In this document: piece after piece, positions 169 through 16,053 of the stretch
Layout: every line of letters starts with the position of its first letter
How positions within the stretch are numbered: the first letter of the stretch is position 1
From: Escherichia phage vB_EcoM_G2494
Sequence record: MK327935.1
Length of the DNA stretch: 64,000 nt
Direction: 5' to 3' (one strand)
Notes under the pieces: generated by a model
The model's input: the letters and a program-made list of their open reading frames with translations, nothing else
Databases searched by the model: none
What the model was told of the DNA's origin: nothing
Translations under genes and position numbers: made by a program

Positions 169-1671
169 ATGCAAGATATTAAAATTCACTTTCTGAACTA
201 CTCCCATGTTCAAATTGAATGTAGCGATTCAATTTTATTAGAAATGCGAGATTATTTTAGTTTTGAAGTCGAGGGAGCGCGGTTTCAAAAAAGATTTAAG
301 TATGGTGGATGGGATGGGCGTATTCGTCTTTTAGATTACAACGGAAAGCTGCCAATCGGCCTAACTAAAACCGTGGGAATCTTCGCTAAAAATATGGGCT
401 ATAGCGTATGGGTAGATCCTCGCTTATTCGAAAAAGAACAAGTTACAGAAGAAGAAATTACAAAATGGTGTAATGACTTAGAATTATATTCCGGTGCTAA
501 CAGGATCACCCCGCATTGGTATCAATCAAAGGCTGTCTTTGAAGGTATTCATCATAAACGCCGTATGTTAGTTTTGCCTACGTCCGCTGGTAAATCTGCG
601 ATTGCTTGTATGTTGTCTCGCTGGTACTTAGAGAACTACGAAGGGAAAGTGCTGATCATCGTTCCTACCACGTCGCTAGTGCTGCAAATGCGTGATGACT
701 TTGTTGATTATCGCCAGTTTCCTTATGAAGCAATTCATACTATCATGAGCGGTACTAGTAAACACGTAGGTGATCGCCTGATCGTTGTTAGTACGTGGCA
801 ATCAGCATGTAAACAGCCTCGTGAGTGGTTCCAGCAATTTGGGATGGTTATTGTTGACGAATGTCACAAAGCCACTGCTAAAAACCTGCTAAACATCGTT
901 ACTGATATGGATCATTGCCAATTTAAGATCGGCATGACTGGTTCCCCTCGTGACGGGAAAGCTAACATGATGCAGTATGTCGGGCTTTTCGGTGATATTT
1001 CTAAGATCGTGAGTATTGACCGCCTGATGGAAGAAGGGCAGGTGACAAAACTGAAAATTAACTGTCTTTTCCTTCGTTATACCGATGATGAATGTAGCGC
1101 GGTTAAGGGGCGAGAATATGCGGAAGAGATCAAGTATATTACGTCTAACCCACGACGAAATAAGTTTGCTTGTAATTTGGCGCTAAAACTCGCTAAGAAG
1201 GGCGAAAACGTATTCCTGATGTTCCGCAATACTAAGCACGGAAAACTTATGTATGATGCGTTACAGAAGGTACACGACAAGGTTTATTATATTGACGGTG
1301 GAGTTAAGACAGAAGAACGTGATGAATTTAAGAAATTAGCGGAAGGGGAAACCGGGATCATTTGCGTTGCATCCTATGGTGTGTTCTCTACTGGTGTTTC
1401 AATTAAGAATTTGCATCATGTTATTTTCGGTCATCCAGTGAAGGAATCAACTATCGTTCGTCAGAGTATCGGTCGTGCATTGCGTAAACATGGTTCTAAG
1501 GATATTGCAACGGTCTGGGATCTTATAGATCATCTGGCGGTGAAGACAAAGAGCAAGAATGCTAAGAAACAGTTTAGTCACCTTAATTATGCTCTTAAAC
1601 ATGCCATTGAAAGAATAAAAATTTACAACACCGACCGATTCGAATATGCCACGAAAACCATCGAGATTTAA
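169..1671 (+). CDS. uvsW: UvsW DNA/RNA helicase (SF2)
   Basis: N-terminus MQDIKIHF...GWDGRIRLLDYN and Walker A LPTSAGKS match T4 UvsW; ORF track start at 154 is GTG, ATG at 169 has GAGG RBS. Confidence 0.9.
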   Translation: MQDIKIHFLNYSHVQIECSDSILLEMRDYFSFEVEGARFQKRFKYGGWDGRIRLLDYNGKLPIGLTKTVGIFAKNMGYSVWVDPRLFEKEQVTEEEITKWCNDLELYSGANRITPHWYQSKAVFEGIHHKRRMLVLPTSAGKSAIACMLSRWYLENYEGKVLIIVPTTSLVLQMRDDFVDYRQFPYEAIHTIMSGTSKHVGDRLIVVSTWQSACKQPREWFQQFGMVIVDECHKATAKNLLNIVTDMDHCQFKIGMTGSPRDGKANMMQYVGLFGDISKIVSIDRLMEEGQVTKLKINCLFLRYTDDECSAVKGREYAEEIKYITSNPRRNKFACNLALKLAKKGENVFLMFRNTKHGKLMYDALQKVHDKVYYIDGGVKTEERDEFKKLAEGETGIICVASYGVFSTGVSIKNLHHVIFGHPVKESTIVRQSIGRALRKHGSKDIATVWDLIDHLAVKTKSKNAKKQFSHLNYALKHAIERIKIYNTDRFEYATKTIEI

Positions 1672-3066: not shown

Positions 3067-3692
3067 AGAATTTTAAGGAAACTGGATAGACCTGATAATG
3101 AATATACACCAGATTCCCCGCATTCGCACTTGATCGGTACTGCCAGCGTGATTTGATTTCTTGTTAGCTCGTCGATCACTTCTTCCACTTTATCCGTGGT
3201 AAGCATATCCAGCACGCGGTCAAAGTCCTGTGCGTTCAGGTCGTCTATATTGAATTGCTGATCGCCGATCACGATATATTCGATACATGCAATTACCATC
3301 TGCATAATATCAACATCTTCTGTAAACTTAGGTTGACGAAATTTGATTTTTACTTGCCCTAAGTCCAGAATATACGGTTCAACTTCTGGTATCTGTGTGC
3401 GTGAAACATCAAGAGAATATACTTTCTCTTTATTGCATACACCACATACCCAAGTAGCATCAATTTTCATCTTATTGAGGCTGTGACACCATAAGAGAAG
3501 AAAAATATATTCTGCTTCGCATTTCTCTAGCTCTAATGCATTGATCCCCGTACATTCATGTATGATCTCTATAACAACCTCTGACAGCTTGCCAGTCTCT
3601 TTTGCTGCTACCAGTTTTTGAAATTCGCCGAAGGTGAAAGCACGGGCGTGTATCAACTTTTCGCCTAATTGGATCTTGAAAAAGTATTGCAT
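3063..3692 (-). CDS. 26: baseplate hub subunit gp26
   Basis: 209 aa, overlaps gp25 start, synteny with T4 26-25. Confidence 0.75.
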   Translation of the reverse strand: MQYFFKIQLGEKLIHARAFTFGEFQKLVAAKETGKLSEVVIEIIHECTGINALELEKCEAEYIFLLLWCHSLNKMKIDATWVCGVCNKEKVYSLDVSRTQIPEVEPYILDLGQVKIKFRQPKFTEDVDIMQMVIACIEYIVIGDQQFNIDDLNAQDFDRVLDMLTTDKVEEVIDELTRNQITLAVPIKCECGESGVYSLSGLSSFLKIL

Positions 3693-3734
3693 AATAAAAC
3701 ACCCTTTATAAACACATAGAATTATTTAGTATTT

Positions 3735-3742
3735 TATAAATA
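3735..3742 (+). promoter_or_regulatory. T4-type late promoter TATAAATA upstream of gene 51
   Basis: exact TATAAATA 21 nt upstream of ATG at 3763. Confidence 0.6.
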
Positions 3743-3762
3743 CCCGAAAGGGGGATTATACC

Positions 3763-4533
3763 ATGAATATTATCCGAATAAAACTACCGGAAGGTGTGCA
3801 GAGATTTAAACCATTCACGGTAAAAGATTATAGAGATTTCCTTCTGGTGTCAACTGAAATTAAGATGAATCCAGAAGAAGAACAAACGATTCTGGATGAG
3901 CTATTAGAAGAAATATATCCAGAAGTAGATCCGGCATTTCGTGAATATATTTTCCTGAATGTCTTTACTAGTTCAATTGGTAAAACAAAGATACCGCTTT
4001 GTTTTACTTGCCCGACTTGCAACAAAGAAAGAAAAATGTTGCTTAACTTACAGGTTGAAGCACTAAAACCAATCGTTCTAGAGGCCGCAGGGCTTAAAAT
4101 AACTTTCCGGTATGTTAAACCATCAACCGACTATGCAAAAACGTTTCTGGATGCGATAGAGCGTGTATCTGATGGTGTTAATGATTATCTATGGACTGAA
4201 TTACCGGAAGAAGTTAGAGAACAGGTTATAGATTCAATCTCATTTGCTGAATTTGAAGAAGTTGTTAAGCAGATGCACACAATCAAGATCGAACAAAAGA
4301 TATCTTGTTGTGAAAGTCATGACCTGAAATACATAGGTCTTCTTCCATTATTCAAATTGTTGTTGAATCCAGATGAGTTATTCATCTTTTATCGAATAAA
4401 CCATCTATTGGCAAAATCAAATTATTCTATCAGTGATCTTATGGATATGTTACCGATTGAGAGAAACATTGCACTGACACTGGTCGAGAAAGACGTAAAA
4501 GAGGCAAATAATGCAAAGAACGGGGTTTCCTAA
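3763..4533 (+). CDS. 51: baseplate hub assembly protein gp51
   Basis: 256 aa, divergent from 26 as in T4; CxxC pair FTCPTCNKE. Confidence 0.7.
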   Translation: MNIIRIKLPEGVQRFKPFTVKDYRDFLLVSTEIKMNPEEEQTILDELLEEIYPEVDPAFREYIFLNVFTSSIGKTKIPLCFTCPTCNKERKMLLNLQVEALKPIVLEAAGLKITFRYVKPSTDYAKTFLDAIERVSDGVNDYLWTELPEEVREQVIDSISFAEFEEVVKQMHTIKIEQKISCCESHDLKYIGLLPLFKLLLNPDELFIFYRINHLLAKSNYSISDLMDMLPIERNIALTLVEKDVKEANNAKNGVS

Positions 4534-9896: not shown

Positions 9897-10376
9897 TGCT
9901 AAATCATTGCAATATTTTAGTGCCTTAGTTTGAAATTCTGCGCTGTTAAGTTCTTCATAACGGTCATAATCACCGTTTAATGCTGCCTTTCTTGCTTCTT
10001 GCTCTATCTGCATGTCAGACATGATAATACAGCGATCCCGTGCTTTCATCTTCTCAAGTTGTATAGACTCTTCTTTCTGCTTGCGCAATTCTTCTTGACG
10101 CTTCTTTTCTTCTTGTGCTTTCTCTTCCCGCGCTTCTTTGATTGCATCCTTGAACATCTGCGTTTGTGGTGCTAAACCAACTTTAACGCGATCTACGTCT
10201 CGACGTTCCATTTTAGAAATAAAGCATGATTCGATCTTATCATCACTTGCATATGTTGCTTTACATTCACGAAGCAAGAAAACCGGATCTGATTTAGCAT
10301 TCATCATAGCTTCCATGTTAGCACAACCAGTAAGCATGAATACAGCCGCAAGACCAATTAGTTTAATCATTTTCAT
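9891..10376 (-). CDS. putative lipoprotein with K/E-rich coiled-coil segment
   Basis: signal peptide MKMIKLIGLAAVFMLTGC with lipobox LTGC; start overlaps upstream ART gene stop. Confidence 0.6.
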   Translation of the reverse strand: MKMIKLIGLAAVFMLTGCANMEAMMNAKSDPVFLLRECKATYASDDKIESCFISKMERRDVDRVKVGLAPQTQMFKDAIKEAREEKAQEEKKRQEELRKQKEESIQLEKMKARDRCIIMSDMQIEQEARKAALNGDYDRYEELNSAEFQTKALKYCNDLAK

Positions 10377-11197
10377 TTAGTCACCTCACCGAAAATTGTA
10401 AATTGTCTACGATTCTCATCGCCGAAAGATTCTACTACGTCGTTTACCTTGACGCAAGTCCCGCGCGGTAAAATTACTTCACATTCGCAAGGGTTCCATG
10501 CAATGGACCCAACAACAAAACCTTTATGATCTTTTACATCAATCACCCATGATACATTACAAGAATGTTGCATCTTTCCGGTCATTGATTCATATCGATT
10601 CTCACAATAAAGGCTAGTGCTGTTTGAAAGCCATCCTCCAAAGATGATCGGTGTCATGCTAGTAGATACAAAGTTTTTAAAGGTAAATTCCTTATCTTCA
10701 ATAATACGCTCTATTGTCTGAATGTCAAGATGTTGACCGCGATAAAGAGTACCGTTTAACTTTTCGGTTTTATCCATGACACAATCCATCAAATCAACAA
10801 TCTCTGATATCTCATCGGTCATGTCTTCTTCCCCTAAGAGAGCACCATTTACCCATTCGTATTGTTCAGACACATAATCACAGATTGCATTATATTCTGC
10901 TGGGGTTATGTTGTTATGTTTGTAATGTTTGAATACATTATCTCCAAAGTCTTCGGAGTGTACTTCATACATCACATTAATGATTTTCTTTACAAATCCA
11001 TAATCTTGTGTCTCGCGCTCAAGGAAGCGGATAACCTTCACATAATCATCAAAGTTAATCTGATCGCTGATCATTTCAGTGATCATGTAACCATTAATAC
11101 CATCAATGTCATATGTTTCGATGTAATTATCCATACGTTCCATCATTGATTCGCGTGATTCTTCCGAAAGACGAAAATCCTGTAATTTCTTGAACAT
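10373..11197 (-). CDS. Alt-like mono-ADP-ribosyltransferase paralog (R-S-ExE type)
   Basis: LYRGQ, FVSTSMTP, NPCECEVILPRG motifs parallel the Alt C-terminal catalytic domain. Confidence 0.7.
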   Translation of the reverse strand: MFKKLQDFRLSEESRESMMERMDNYIETYDIDGINGYMITEMISDQINFDDYVKVIRFLERETQDYGFVKKIINVMYEVHSEDFGDNVFKHYKHNNITPAEYNAICDYVSEQYEWVNGALLGEEDMTDEISEIVDLMDCVMDKTEKLNGTLYRGQHLDIQTIERIIEDKEFTFKNFVSTSMTPIIFGGWLSNSTSLYCENRYESMTGKMQHSCNVSWVIDVKDHKGFVVGSIAWNPCECEVILPRGTCVKVNDVVESFGDENRRQFTIFGEVTK

Positions 11198-11275: not shown

Positions 11276-13327
11276 TTACATTTTAAATTTATCTGGCATT
11301 GCGTCTACCGATACCAGATCAGCGATAAGCTGACGTAGAGTTGCCTTATCTGCTTTCTTACGTTCGGTTTTAGCTTCGGTAATAAATCTGGAGAAAGACA
11401 GGTCAGAAGCAGGTTTAACAACACCTTCACGGATGAATGCATCACCGTCCGCGATCATCTCACCAGATTCTTGTAATGCTGCCAGTTCATTTTTGTTCAT
11501 AATATGTGCCTCAATGTAATAAGTTTCTTGTGAATCCGTCGATGCCGTAGCACGAGTTACCGTATCAAAGGATAACACAACACCGCGAGGAAGTAAAATC
11601 TCGCATTCTTTGTAAGCAAATGCTTTGTTACCTACTGGCAACACAGGGATGTTTTCCGCGCCAGCAATGGAGAAAGCAACATTAGCGCCACCTTCACCGC
11701 GAGAGCCAGCCATAGAATCAACACCAGCAACGGCACTAGCCACGTTTGCATTCCAGCCGCCAAAAATGTTAGGTGCAAGGGAAGTGCTCACATAGTTTTT
11801 AAAGTAAAACGCTTTTTGCTTACGTGCAGTTTCCCACATTTGCGACCGGAAGTCCATACCACGATACAGAATAGTACCCGGATCAAGTTTAACGCCATAG
11901 TTGGAGAAGGCATTATCCAGTGCATCACACATCTTGACCAATTCTTCTGGATCTGCGATGCCTTCAAACTCTTCCAGCTTACGGTCGGTTAGGAAGTTGT
12001 TCATATTGATGTATGCTGCATCGGCATATTCGCTCAACACAAAACCTTCCGCGCCTGGCAGATCAAGATCAATATTTGCCATCATTTCACCCATGTTGCT
12101 AGCAATTGCTTCAAACATACCGGAAGCAACATTACGTAGGGCATCGGTTTTAATCTGGGTGATATGACTACGCAGCATTTCAGCTTTTACATCTGCTGGC
12201 ATAGACTGGTCTACTCGATCCATTGCCAGGGCGGTGATCTTGTTTTCGAATACTTCCTCGCTCATGATTTCTTTTAAGCGTTTGATTGATGCTGCGATAA
12301 CTTCCGCAGACAACGGATCATATTGATCCTGAACTTTTACCAGTTCGCTTACTGCGTATTTTGCATCGGCTTCGCTTTCAAAAATAGTACGCATGAAACC
12401 ATAGCGAGTGATAATATCACTTGTCCATTCATTCAGAGAACGGGCGGTTGAACGTTCTAAGGCTTGACGATCAATCAGAGTATTAAACTGTTTCTTAGGT
12501 TCGGCTTCGGTGATATCTTCTTCCGGTTTAAGATTAATTTTTTCTGGATGATTCACATAGTCGCTGTTATAGGTCGCTTGAGTTTTCAGCATTTCTTCTT
12601 TAGTCAAACGAGATTTAGCCGCTACGCGTTGTTCCGCTTCCGCGTTTCGTTCTTCTTCTGACACCAGACTAGCCGCATACGCCTCATCTTTAGTCAGAGA
12701 TTCACCAGTAGCCTTAGATACCCAGCGATCACCTAAATCACTTTCTACTTTAGTGAACAAGGAATCATCAAGTTTAATCCCTTTAATCTTATCAATCGCC
12801 ATACCGCGACGTTTGACAACAACTAAAGCGATCTTTTTGCTGGTCATTACTTCCTGCTGGAATACTTCAAACTTCGGTGTACGACGCACCAAACGCTCTA
12901 TAACGCGCTTAACCAGTTCGGTCTTACCTTTCATGCGGGATACGTTAAAACGGAACATAACAGCGTCTAATTGCGCTTTACGGGCTGTTTCCATAACCAC
13001 ATCAAAAGCACTTGCCATAACTGCAATCGGGTTATCGCCTAGACCATTTTTAAGCTGTACAATACGACCGCTTTTGTTCATTTCGCACAGTACAACATGT
13101 GCGGTCTTGTCACCCATACGAATGATTTTAGGTGTTTTGTTGGTGAAGTTACAAAGACGGACAATCACATCTTTATCGCGTGTCTGTACTGCAAAAAGCT
13201 GTTTAGGATTCTGCTTAGGCTTTAAGCACTGTACCGGAGCAATACTGCCAAAGTTTTCTTCCTCTTCCGTCAACAGCCATTTCTCGAAAGATTCAATCAT
13301 TAGATCGTCGATTTCTAAGTTAAACAT
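11276..13327 (-). CDS. alt: Alt ADP-ribosyltransferase (virion-packaged)
   Basis: 683 aa (T4 Alt 682); ILYRGMDFRS, YVSTSLAP, ECEILLPRG catalytic motifs. Confidence 0.85.
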   Translation of the reverse strand: MFNLEIDDLMIESFEKWLLTEEEENFGSIAPVQCLKPKQNPKQLFAVQTRDKDVIVRLCNFTNKTPKIIRMGDKTAHVVLCEMNKSGRIVQLKNGLGDNPIAVMASAFDVVMETARKAQLDAVMFRFNVSRMKGKTELVKRVIERLVRRTPKFEVFQQEVMTSKKIALVVVKRRGMAIDKIKGIKLDDSLFTKVESDLGDRWVSKATGESLTKDEAYAASLVSEEERNAEAEQRVAAKSRLTKEEMLKTQATYNSDYVNHPEKINLKPEEDITEAEPKKQFNTLIDRQALERSTARSLNEWTSDIITRYGFMRTIFESEADAKYAVSELVKVQDQYDPLSAEVIAASIKRLKEIMSEEVFENKITALAMDRVDQSMPADVKAEMLRSHITQIKTDALRNVASGMFEAIASNMGEMMANIDLDLPGAEGFVLSEYADAAYINMNNFLTDRKLEEFEGIADPEELVKMCDALDNAFSNYGVKLDPGTILYRGMDFRSQMWETARKQKAFYFKNYVSTSLAPNIFGGWNANVASAVAGVDSMAGSRGEGGANVAFSIAGAENIPVLPVGNKAFAYKECEILLPRGVVLSFDTVTRATASTDSQETYYIEAHIMNKNELAALQESGEMIADGDAFIREGVVKPASDLSFSRFITEAKTERKKADKATLRQLIADLVSVDAMPDKFKM

Positions 13328-13679: not shown

Positions 13680-13859
13680 TTAGAACATTTTTGAAATTAA
13701 TTCTGCTTTGATTTCGCAGAGAACATCTAAAGATTTCTCGTCACCCGCTTTTGCTGCTTCTGCTTGCATTTTTGAAATGGCTTCAATCTCAGTGCAATTA
13801 TAAGCCGCTTGAACTTTAGCGATTGCGAGGATTGCCGATTCGATGGTTAAGTGTTTTAT
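13680..13859 (-). pseudogene. small ORF (~59 codons) with ATA in the start-codon position (decayed start or AUA initiation)
   Basis: cassette RBS GGAGAATCAAAC followed by ATA where paralogous cassettes have ATG; first in-frame ATG leaves only 29 codons. Confidence 0.35.
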
Positions 13860-13891: not shown

Positions 13892-13920
13892 ATTATAGGG
13901 GATCGATGATCCCCTGTCAA
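13892..13920 (-). promoter_or_regulatory. sigma70-like early promoter with palindromic spacer
   Basis: TTGACA, spacer GGGGATCATCGATCCCC (17 bp, inverted repeat), TATAAT. Confidence 0.65.
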
Positions 13921-13928
13921 CAACTTTT

Positions 13929-14447
13929 TTAGTTATTTTTTAATTGCTCATCTTGCAATAGGGCAATCACATGCTGGCGATGTTCTTCCGATTGAGGCAC
14001 ACCGAAAAAGTTTGTTTTGTAGAAATACTCTAATCGGTCTTCTCGTGTGCTCTCTTCCATCATGATCGCGGGTAGTCCGAGATTTCGGAAACGTCGCTTT
14101 TCTGCTGGCGTAAAATCACTGTAATACATCATAGAATCATCATTACCAGCAATGCTAAACTCATCCTTCATGAAGGAGAATATTGCGTTTAAACGCTGTT
14201 TACCGTCCACGATTTCGATCTCATAGCGAGAGCCATCATCAATCTTAGCCATTGCGATAGCACCAACCGGAAAATCATTAATCAGGTTTTCGATAAACAT
14301 ACGTTTGTTTTCGGTGTCCCATACTAAAGGACGCTGATAATCTGGGTTCATGTTGATATAGCCATCTTCTAACCATGCATCATAAACAGAGATGACAAAG
14401 TTTTTAGTATTGGTATAGTAACGGCGTTTAGGCGTTAAACGGTTCAT
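13929..14447 (-). CDS. DUF262 / ParB-like (GmrS-like N-terminal domain) protein
   Basis: NPDYQRPLVW and VDGKQRL motifs; ATG at 14447 with AGGAG RBS (ORF track start 14483 over-extends). Confidence 0.65.
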   Translation of the reverse strand: MNRLTPKRRYYTNTKNFVISVYDAWLEDGYINMNPDYQRPLVWDTENKRMFIENLINDFPVGAIAMAKIDDGSRYEIEIVDGKQRLNAIFSFMKDEFSIAGNDDSMMYYSDFTPAEKRRFRNLGLPAIMMEESTREDRLEYFYKTNFFGVPQSEEHRQHVIALLQDEQLKNN

Positions 14448-14448
14448 G

Positions 14449-14778
14449 TTATAGTCTCCTGAATGGATCATCACGTAAATCAATATCTTTTAAGAACTCA
14501 TCCCATGAATGGCGGATATTGTTCTTAATTCTCCAGATAAGAGCAGGGATTGAACGCTCTCCCATCTGGAAGTATGGATCATATGATCCGTATGCCCAAT
14601 ATGCTACTACAATTCCACAATCAGCGCAATAGTATTCTATTTCACTTGCTGGCGACAAAAGTCCATCAATATGATCGGTGATCTTGCTTTCGATGTTATG
14701 GCTATGACAATCAGGGCAACGGATGCAATGACCTTGTTTATCGTAATTTGATGTTAGTGAATACTTAAACAATCTCAT
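14449..14778 (-). CDS. Zn-ribbon protein
   Basis: CIRCPDCHSH...YYCADCG (two CxxC pairs). Confidence 0.55.
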   Translation of the reverse strand: MRLFKYSLTSNYDKQGHCIRCPDCHSHNIESKITDHIDGLLSPASEIEYYCADCGIVVAYWAYGSYDPYFQMGERSIPALIWRIKNNIRHSWDEFLKDIDLRDDPFRRL

Positions 14779-15494
14779 TATAGATCCTTATTTGCTTCAA
14801 ATACTGCCTTTGCGAATCCTCGCGGGGTAAGTGACCTTATAGTCTTTGTTTTCGTTCCTTTCCCGCCTAGCTTAGAATGCTGTTTACTGTACCCTTTATT
14901 AATCTGCAACGGTTTCTTTTCTGGCATTATAAAGCCTTGTCCGGTCCATAAGCAAGTCTTTTTTGGGTACATATCACGGGCGGCAATATACTCAGGAAAC
15001 GTAGGATGCTTATCATCTTCCGGCAAATAACCGCCATATTCCCACGGATGGAACATATAATCAGGCTTACGCCACATGCTAGAGATAACGCTTACAGGAT
15101 TCTCTATCATGTAGGGAACTCCTAGCCATTCACCCAAATAAGCGGTTATTTTGGCTGCCCTTACATCATGAACTTGAATCAATGGTCCTTGTTCTCGTTT
15201 CTTTCGTTCAAAGTGCGCAGCGCCACTAACAGCTAAATTGGTGCATGGTGGGAATGCAAAGATAATATCCGGTTTCCCCCATTCAAGGTCCATTGCTCTT
15301 TCTAGCCAGTTAAAATCAATCCATGTGTTTACATAGGTAATGTTTGGATGTTCAAATCTGGTATTATACTTTTTGTATGTTCCGTGGTCGCCATCGTCAG
15401 CATTAAAGCAGATCACCTTATGACCTGCTTTAGCCCATTCTAACCCCATTATCCCCGATCCGTCAAAGTTACAGAATATTAATTTTTGTTTCAT
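14778..15494 (-). CDS. DNA cytosine-5 methyltransferase-like protein
   Basis: FDGSG (motif I-like), FPPCT (PC motif IV), IENP (ENV motif VI-like); 238 aa. Confidence 0.45.
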   Translation of the reverse strand: MKQKLIFCNFDGSGIMGLEWAKAGHKVICFNADDGDHGTYKKYNTRFEHPNITYVNTWIDFNWLERAMDLEWGKPDIIFAFPPCTNLAVSGAAHFERKKREQGPLIQVHDVRAAKITAYLGEWLGVPYMIENPVSVISSMWRKPDYMFHPWEYGGYLPEDDKHPTFPEYIAARDMYPKKTCLWTGQGFIMPEKKPLQINKGYSKQHSKLGGKGTKTKTIRSLTPRGFAKAVFEANKDL

Positions 15495-15736
15495 ATACGC
15501 CCCTTTAATCCAACACAGATTTTAGAAGGTTCTTTGCCGTGCCACATTAAGTAAAGTCCGTTAATGCGGCCTTGTTTTGTATATGATTCTTTTCTGATCT
15601 TCTTATAGTGTCGTGCTTCCTCAGCCGATTGTTTAGAATACCAATCATAAAGGAAGAGGCACAAAGGCCACCCATTAGCGGCCTTAATGCAGTTATTAAG
15701 AAATTCCTTATTGCGTTTAATTAATTTTCTTTTCAC
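15491..15736 (-). CDS. hypothetical early protein (81 aa)
   Basis: ORF overlapping neighbours in operon. Confidence 0.5.
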   Translation of the reverse strand: MKRKLIKRNKEFLNNCIKAANGWPLCLFLYDWYSKQSAEEARHYKKIRKESYTKQGRINGLYLMWHGKEPSKICVGLKGRI

Positions 15737-15984
15737 GCTGCCCCCATTGGTTTGATAGTAACAGAATCTAAAAGACCTTTGTTAGCCAGTTCGCGGCAAG
15801 TTTTCAGATCCGCAACTTCCCAGCCAGCCGCAATCAGGTTATCAATGAGGCTGTTAGCAACTTCTTCGCTCATGAAAGAGCACTGTTTGCCGATGGTGTA
15901 GCGTACACGCTGTAATTTCAGTTTACGGAAGCCTTTAACGTTCAGGTCTTTAGCGATTTTCTTTGCGGTTTCGATGTTAGCCAT
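15733..15984 (-). CDS. hypothetical early protein (83 aa)
   Basis: ORF behind promoter cassette; N-terminus MANIE shared with 13396-13608 gene. Confidence 0.55.
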   Translation of the reverse strand: MANIETAKKIAKDLNVKGFRKLKLQRVRYTIGKQCSFMSEEVANSLIDNLIAAGWEVADLKTCRELANKGLLDSVTIKPMGAA

Positions 15985-16024: not shown

Positions 16025-16053
16025 ATTGTAGGGGAGTTATCCTCCCCTGTCAA
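16025..16053 (-). promoter_or_regulatory. sigma70-like early promoter
   Basis: TTGACA, spacer GGGGAGGATAACTCCCC, TACAAT. Confidence 0.55.

Follow-up and report, generated by a model that had tools for sequence, protein, structure and literature searches.

Gene organization of the locus

The window, a stretch of 64,000 nucleotides from the sequence record MK327935.1, belongs to an RB49-type Krischvirus, i.e., a T4-like coliphage; the part considered here shares, over 3 kb, 97–98% identity with RB49, TB34, kaaroe, JSE, Phi1 and about 50 further Krischvirus genomes. On its minus strand, in a plastic region adjoining alt, lie three intact genes encoding a methylase-like protein, a zinc-ribbon protein and a small protein with a DUF262 domain (Table 1). 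Their annotation pre-exists: in GenBank, RB49p189 is named ‘DNA methyltransferase’ and is accompanied by p188 and p187, and other records carry the labels ‘putative C-5 cytosine DNA methylase’, ‘Dcm’ and ‘DUF262 domain protein’.

Table 1. Genes and promoter elements of the locus, in the order of transcription.
Feature	Position	Strand	Remarks
PeSL-type early promoter (TTGACA, 17 nt including a GGGGAGG...CTCCCC hairpin, TACAAT)	16025..16053	-	Starts the five-gene unit
First gene of the unit, 83 aa, RB49p190 homologue, phrog_14908	15733..15984	-	Hypothetical
Second gene of the unit, 81 aa, GTG start, RB49p189.1 homologue, phrog_7065	15491..15736	-	Hypothetical
Methylase-like gene, 238 aa, ATG start, RB49p189	14778..15494	-	From the ORF list
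Zinc-ribbon gene, 109 aa, ATG start, RB49p188, phrog_2993	14449..14778	-	From the ORF list
Mini-DUF262 (ParB/Srx-fold) gene, 172 aa, RB49p187	13929..14447	-	From the ORF list, in-frame ATG at 14447
Next PeSL early promoter/hairpin (TTGACA, GGGGATCATCGATCCCC, TATAAT)	13892..13920	-	Closes the unit and starts the following one

The three genes are translationally coupled, as a previous reading of this DNA made from the sequence alone (the sequence-only reading) had stated. Inspection of the sequence reveals a TAATG stop/start overlap between the methylase and zinc-ribbon genes and the junction TAAcATG between the zinc-ribbon and DUF262 genes, and a Shine-Dalgarno-like sequence precedes the start of each of the three. 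The DUF262 ORF is listed as 13929..14483 and a longer, TTG-initiated reading is possible; from the ATG at 14447 the product has 172 residues, a length equal to that of the annotated RB49 gene (519 nt).

The same reading had described the trio as an operon, which is right for the coupling and wrong for the extent. In fact, two upstream genes (15984-15733 and 15736-15491) share 4-nt overlaps with their neighbours, the second of them on both sides, and at 16053-16025 lies a sigma-70 promoter that is close to the consensus and whose spacer contains a GC hairpin. An element of the same type, at 13920-13892, begins 9 nt past the stop codon of the DUF262 gene, whose protein ends at residue 172. With these coupled upstream genes and flanking promoters, what had been called a three-gene operon makes up the distal portion of an early unit that has five genes and two PeSL boundaries; Pfam and PADLOC profile searches found no nuclease family in this unit. 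PeSL cassettes are mobile promoter/terminator elements of RB49 and phi1, and the shuffling that they mediate has been documented for neighbouring ORFs such as RB49 ORFan192 (PMC2839356).

Conservation within the genus Krischvirus

Each of the three genes is found in 56 records at an identity of at least 90%, and the trio is seemingly co-present in every Krischvirus sampled. In pairwise comparisons within the genus, pN/pS is 0.04–0.05 for the methylase, 0.05–0.18 for the zinc-ribbon gene and 0.07–0.20 for the DUF262 gene, values that indicate, for all three, maintenance by purifying selection. The block is nevertheless plastic even within Krischvirus: in kaaroe an additional ORF of 59 codons separates the zinc-ribbon gene from the DUF262 gene, p189.1 is missing from one contig (L009), and in phage SAP the PeSL just downstream of the DUF262 gene is duplicated (79 bp).

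As a separate observation, tight coupling together with co-presence in all the sampled genomes also gives the trio a module-like look, which counts against the independence of its genes.

The methylase-like protein

The 238-residue protein matches phrog_757 (‘DNA methyltransferase’) at 4e-90. The Pfam profile DNA_methylase (PF00145) is matched weakly, with an E value of 0.03 and 14.2 bits against a gathering cut-off of 22 bits over profile positions 7–87, and NCBIfam gives no match; at E 0.1 or better the same Pfam profile is found in 16 of 32 family members (best 1.3e-6). Since its score lies under the gathering cut-off, the protein is placed in a divergent branch of the PF00145 superfamily rather than among its typical members. 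Single-sequence and profile searches of PDB sequences returned no match, and the structural placement came from the fold search only, which identified a class I AdoMet-methyltransferase fold, closest to solved DNA C5-methyltransferases; the matches include DNMT3A/B, M.HhaI and M.HaeIII, and CmoX (8yf3) is also among the top ones.

In the alignment of the 32 members, motif I (F10-x-G12-S13-G14), which binds AdoMet, motif IV (P82-P83-C84-T85), which contains the catalytic cysteine, the ENV-like motif VI (E131-N132-P133) and R142 are invariant, and motif IX (I219-R-S-L-T-P-R-G226), resembling RRLTPRECARLM of Dcm, shows the highest conservation in the family. PPCT and ENP are colinear with FPCQ and ENV of Escherichia coli Dcm, against which the hhalign and hmmsearch alignments cover motifs IV–VI only. 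Fold and catalytic cysteine being present, and motif I with them, the doubt admitted in the sequence-only reading that the 238-residue protein might lack a methyltransferase fold is removed. No motif X (FGNSV in Dcm; the FGNxV helix that closes the cofactor pocket) is recognisable across the family alignment: the chain ends 13 residues past motif IX and, in the sequence alignment, has no GN motif there, and the invariant N235 of the last helix might act as a stand-in. The target-recognition region is short, about 75 residues, and conserved across the family.

This family comprises 7,310 database proteins, all of about 225–250 residues. The 1,581 phage records that contain it belong mostly to T1-like Drexlerviridae, Webervirus, rV5-like and other enterobacterial phages, and the protein is 52–65% identical to hundreds of phage homologues; a search of the literature found no measured specificity or methylome for any member. 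Judged from its sequence, the protein is assigned to a compact, phage-specific branch of the DNA cytosine-5 methyltransferase superfamily, and the family is a very large one. That T4 is not known to have such a module is consistent with the annotation of T4 bases 1–50,000, which lists Dam only, and with the absence of Tequatrovirus among 60 evenly spaced methylase matches. Genes for dCMP deaminase, thymidylate synthase and DHFR are present in T4 as well, and RB49-type phages lack hydroxymethylcytosine (hmC), so that a C5-methylase in the latter is not ‘unexpected’, as had been supposed. A homologue was, moreover, already in GenBank and had been noted in RB49- and RB43-type phages (PMC8056088).

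The zinc-ribbon protein

The 109-residue protein is, by its cysteine pattern, a conserved Cys4 zinc ribbon: C18, C21-x2-C24 and C51-x2-C54 are common to it and to gp22 of phage 9g (44% identity). Pfam zinc-ribbon matches are weak (Zn_Ribbon_TF at E 1e-4, under the cut-off), and a word-indexed homologue search with the protein returned itself only. Homologues are found in 9g-like phages and in Felixounavirus, in unrelated neighbourhoods and without the partner genes.

The mini-DUF262 protein

RB49p187 matches the Pfam family GmrSD_N/DUF262 (PF03235) at 5e-20, with 72.8 bits, over the cut-off. Compared with structures, the family profile picks up DndI (9jfl) and BrxU (7p9k) through their DUF262 domains at E<1e-3 and, weakly, SspE (6jiv; E 1.9). 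The protein displays the motifs Y37-Q-R, D81-G-K-Q-R85 and N146-F-F-G-V-P-Q-S-E-E-H156 and falls in the ParB/Srx superfamily, the ParB N-domain fold with its arginine-rich NTP-binding motif being present.

In an exhaustive HMM search, the best 150 representatives of 50% clusters have 150–200 residues, or 250–300 with an unannotated N-terminal extension; nearly all of these closest relatives are shorter than 350 residues and none reaches the length of GmrSD. YQR is present in all 154 family sequences checked, DGKQR in about 147 and a looser C-terminal signature, G[VIT]P[QLM]S..[EH], in 93, about 20 residues from the C-terminus. On this basis, we define a mini-DUF262 clade by a length of about 160–190 residues (or about 250–300 with the N-terminal extension) and by the motifs YQR, DGKQR and NFxG[VI]PQSxEH; RB49p187 has this length, both internal motifs and the C-terminal signature. 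Because the relatives are short and the motifs are kept, these proteins form a separate clade and are not truncated restriction enzymes; because neither a fused C-terminal DUF1524/HNH nuclease nor an adjacent GmrD gene is found, RB49p187 is not a GmrSD. In PADLOC, the protein comes closest to NsnA and PD-T4-2_A, not to GmrSD models. All three domain assignments of the sequence-only reading have therefore stood up, namely a C5-methyltransferase fold with a catalytic PC, a Cys4 ribbon and a standalone DUF262 domain that has no nuclease domain.

A related-locus search with the single DUF262 protein returned Krischvirus only; homologues also exist in KP27, Lw1, the lambdoid prophage ST64B and three metagenomic contigs. 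In KP27 and Lw1 a gene of 304–319 codons overlaps the DUF262 homologue and was considered as the missing effector; it was rejected, as it has no Pfam or PADLOC match and no counterpart here.

Distribution of the three genes in other phages

To follow the three genes beyond this genus, we sampled 80 IMG/VR viral loci with a methylase homologue (52–98% identity) and sought the partners within 4 kb. A zinc-ribbon or DUF262 gene was found at only two loci, both of Krischvirus, and the other 78 have neither; a regex motif screen for other ParB-like ORFs near the 80 methylase genes gave spurious matches only. The immediate neighbours of the methylase are varied, SNF2-type helicases and Dam being among them. 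In more than 1,500 phage genomes the methylase is present and the zinc-ribbon and DUF262 genes are missing; conversely, no methylase lies near the mini-DUF262 homologues of KP27, Lw1, ST64B and the three metagenomic contigs. Since the three genes do not keep company beyond Krischvirus, nothing points to a joint function, and the reading of the operon as a DNA-modification or anti-restriction module is not borne out. No experimentally characterised member was found for any of the three families.

These data bear directly on the possibility that the trio is a single DNA-modification machine, in which the zinc-ribbon protein and the DUF262 NTPase would load or activate the compact methylase on DNA. 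Phage DNA methyltransferases, including C5-methylase homologues, repeatedly have a ParB-type domain fused to them or encoded next door, which provides a precedent for a ParB-like methylase helper (PMC12783734), and a methylase with a short target-recognition region, no recognisable motif X and a C-terminus so close to motif IX could fit such help, as could translational coupling within a single transcription unit and the apparent co-occurrence of the trio in all the sampled Krischvirus genomes. However, the 78 loci devoid of both partners and of any ParB-like ORF, the large number of genomes in which the methylase does without them, the presence of mini-DUF262 without the methylase in Slopekvirus, Pseudotevenvirus, ST64B and metagenomic phage contigs, and the interruption of the trio by another ORF in kaaroe all speak against it, and we regard a machine of this kind, proposed by analogy, as unlikely.

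DNA modification and restriction in closely related phages

The DNA of RB49-type phages contains ordinary cytosine (PMC6563267; PMC4041780). In the study of the Durham collection, modified nucleosides were undetectable by HPLC-MS in TB34, and BrxU, a GmrSD-family enzyme that also cleaves 5mC DNA, does not cut this phage (PMC13390438). The methylase gene of TB34 is about 98% identical to that of the window. As TB34 is both unmodified and uncut by BrxU, bulk cytosine methylation is unlikely, which leaves room for methylation at rare sites: a rare target of 5–6 bp would evade bulk detection by HPLC.

The same observations are compatible with a methylase that is not a conventional DNA 5mC enzyme, being inactive on DNA, acting on RNA or another substrate, or transferring another group. 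The unmodified, BrxU-insensitive DNA of TB34 (PMC13390438) would be expected in this case, and the lack of a recognisable motif X, the sub-threshold Pfam score, the missing NCBIfam match and the presence of CmoX, a phage carboxy-SAM enzyme, among the top structural matches point in the same direction, as does the BASEL collection, where such methylase genes show no simple relation to restriction sensitivity or resistance (PMC8594841). On the other hand, motifs I, IV and VI are invariant in 32 diverse members, purifying selection is strong, the best structural matches are DNA C5-methyltransferases, and the rare target considered above would be invisible to bulk HPLC; we hold a non-canonical activity to be doubtful, while giving it some weight.

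Phage SAP differs from TB34 in being restricted by BrxU and in the hmC and glucosyl-hmC reported in its DNA (PMC13390438). SAP has no genes for hmC synthase or glucosyltransferase, and the coding sequences of its operon, the DUF262 gene included, are identical to those of TB34. A mapping of the difference in modification between the two phages to the operon was considered and dropped: the coding sequences being the same, the sole local difference is the 79-bp PeSL duplication. Most entries in the published list of SAP/TB34 variants are homopolymer indels that ‘frameshift’ essential genes, and C/T differences are listed as well; the two differences that could be checked each affect the middle base of a CCWGG site; these variants are probably sequencing artefacts.

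The comparison of SAP with TB34 also concerns the suggestion that the DUF262 protein is a dominant-negative decoy, which would heterodimerise with the N-terminal domain of host enzymes of the GmrSD/BrxU type. The protein does share domain family and fold with the N-terminal domain of BrxU and SspE, it is predicted from the sequence to be expressed from an early promoter, and its gene sits in an accessory region of the sort where anti-defence genes are common. Nevertheless, SAP has the same DUF262 gene and is still restricted by BrxU (PMC13390438), which argues against an effective decoy of this enzyme family, and the unmodified cytosine of RB49-type DNA offers no substrate to GmrSD (PMC6563267; PMC4041780; PMC13390438). 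Furthermore, the protein belongs to a clade of its own that has kept NTP motifs of the catalytic type and a private C-terminal signature, features that fit an enzyme or a switch better than a passive mimic, its closest PADLOC matches lie outside the GmrSD models, and the inhibitors of GmrSD known from T-even phages, the injected Ip proteins, are unrelated to it (PMC12373910). The decoy hypothesis of the sequence-only reading is thus disfavoured, and we consider it very improbable.

Interpretation and significance

The trio is probably a set of independently distributed accessory genes that are adjacent in this genus within one PeSL-bounded early unit and do not form a conserved functional module; PeSL-mediated shuffling best explains their adjacency. 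The biochemical activities and biological roles that we infer for the three proteins can be outlined as follows. The methylase would be an orphan post-replicative enzyme acting on a limited set of sites, probably in a site-specific manner, and its main role may be to blunt host restriction. The zinc-ribbon protein could bind nucleic acid or another protein. The mini-DUF262 protein, given its intact NTP-binding motifs, may be an NTP-gated DNA-binding or dimerising switch with a target of its own. We see hardly any likelihood in a bolder scenario, in which the trio would be a post-replicative cytosine-modifying machine, maybe conditional and maybe behind the hmC and glucosyl-hmC of SAP, or, more modestly, mini-DUF262 would represent a widespread class of phage NTP switches with a role in anti-defence or in competition between phages.

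The locus is an ordinary patch of RB49-type accessory genes, whose genes and domain labels are already public, and the main value of this analysis is in correcting the over-interpretation of the trio as a module. What is new is that a mini-DUF262 clade has been delineated and that the PHROG 757 methylases have no recognisable motif X; neither point makes the locus less ordinary. PHROG 757 is among the most abundant phage ‘methylase’ families and its target, once defined, would inform predictions of restriction evasion for many therapeutic coliphages and Klebsiella phages; mini-DUF262 is a coherent and conserved phage group of the ParB/Srx superfamily that deserves a biochemical study.

Comparison with known systems

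RB49p189 is most akin to the orphan C5-methyltransferases of phages (PHROG 757, the ‘Dcm-like’ proteins of Drexlerviridae, Webervirus and rV5-like phages), with which it shares the fold and motifs I, IV, VI and IX and, likewise, a solitary state without a cognate nuclease. It is set apart by having only 238 residues, a target-recognition region of about 75 residues and no recognisable motif X.

With GmrSD, BrxU, SspE and DndI, RB49p187 shares PF03235, the ParB/Srx fold and the QR and DGxQR NTP-binding motifs, whereas it lacks their DUF1524/HNH nuclease and helical domain, has DGKQR instead of DGQQR and bears the private C-terminal NFxGVPQSEEH. A small NTP-binding protein of the ParB superfamily is similarly located beside a DNA-modifying enzyme in the case of the ParBc proteins found by phage methyltransferases, for example in CmoA/CmoX clusters; these, however, belong to PF02195 and not to DUF262, and the adjacency described here is limited to one genus and was not seen at 78 other methylase loci. 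The ATPase DpdB assists DpdA, and this couple may be taken as an analogous pairing of an NTP-binding helper with a DNA-modifying enzyme.

Finally, the organization of the unit recalls the PeSL-bounded ORFan cassettes of RB49 and phi1 (PMC2839356; PMC4122927), which are flanked by the same kind of early promoter, close to the consensus and with a spacer that contains a GC hairpin. The unit adjoins the mobile ORFan192 and, as in those cassettes, the gene content varies among close relatives (kaaroe, L009, SAP); the difference is that a single ORFan is enclosed there and five coupled genes here.

Differences between SAP and TB34

The published comparison of the Krischvirus phages SAP and TB34 lists mainly 1-bp homopolymer indels, together with C>T changes in proline codons (PMC13390438, Table S5). 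The 1-bp indels would frameshift essential genes, namely those of the DNA polymerase, the sliding clamp and topoisomerase, and the two variants that can be mapped to the window (5458 and 7097) both fall on the central base of a CCWGG (Dcm) motif. The published variants look like sequencing artefacts, and therefore the hmC/glucosyl-hmC reported for SAP is left without a visible genetic basis; it is also possible that the SAP stock was mixed. In the 3-kb region that we compared, the sole difference between the two phages is a 79-bp tandem duplication in SAP, missing from the SNIPPY table of PMC13390438, of the PeSL (an early promoter with a hairpin in its spacer) directly 3' of the DUF262 stop codon.

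Positions of the features discussed (L003, L004, L005 and L096 are comparison loci with their own numbering)
Feature	Locus	Position	Strand	Remarks
79-bp tandem duplication	L003 (SAP, OZ034687)	about 1560-1700 (= window about 13924)		covers PeSL promoter/hairpin and Shine-Dalgarno sequence
RB49p186 homologue	window	13859..13680	minus	59 codons; shortly 3' of PeSL 13920-13892
RB49p190 homologue	window	15733-15984	minus	83 aa; first gene of the unit
phrog_10932 gene	L004 (KP27)	3504-4418		304-319 aa in the two loci, conserved; overlaps mini-DUF262 gene
phrog_10932 gene	L005 (Lw1)	3504-4463		as for KP27
Additional ORF	L096 (kaaroe, MN850574)	1346-1525		59 codons; between zinc-ribbon and DUF262 genes
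ADP-ribosyltransferase pair	window	10373-11197 and 11276-13327	minus	tandem; shortly 3' of the unit

Gene content and neighbours of the unit

The first codon of the RB49p186 homologue in the window is ATA (13857-13859) where RB49, TB34 and SAP have ATG, the preceding AGGAG being common to all; the start codon may either have been lost or be a non-canonical one of low efficiency. Within Krischvirus, the set of genes making up the five-gene early unit is variable: the additional ORF of kaaroe overlaps both the zinc-ribbon and the DUF262 gene by 4 nt, and the p189.1 gene is absent from another contig (L009). The RB49p190 homologue matches weakly (E 2.6e-5) positions 722-785 of RT_UG35, the PADLOC model of a defence reverse transcriptase.

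The phrog_10932 gene, present in Slopekvirus and Pseudotevenvirus and absent from Krischvirus, encodes a possible partner or effector of mini-DUF262, the short ParB/Srx-fold clade; searches of Pfam, NCBIfam and PADLOC with the KP27 and Lw1 proteins gave zero matches.

Surrounding window

In the whole window CCWGG occurs 29 times, where base composition by itself would predict about 62 occurrences. Of the two ADP-ribosyltransferase genes, one is Alt-like and full-length (683 aa), and the other is shorter and resembles the C-terminal part of Alt; RB49 has the same arrangement in p183/p184.
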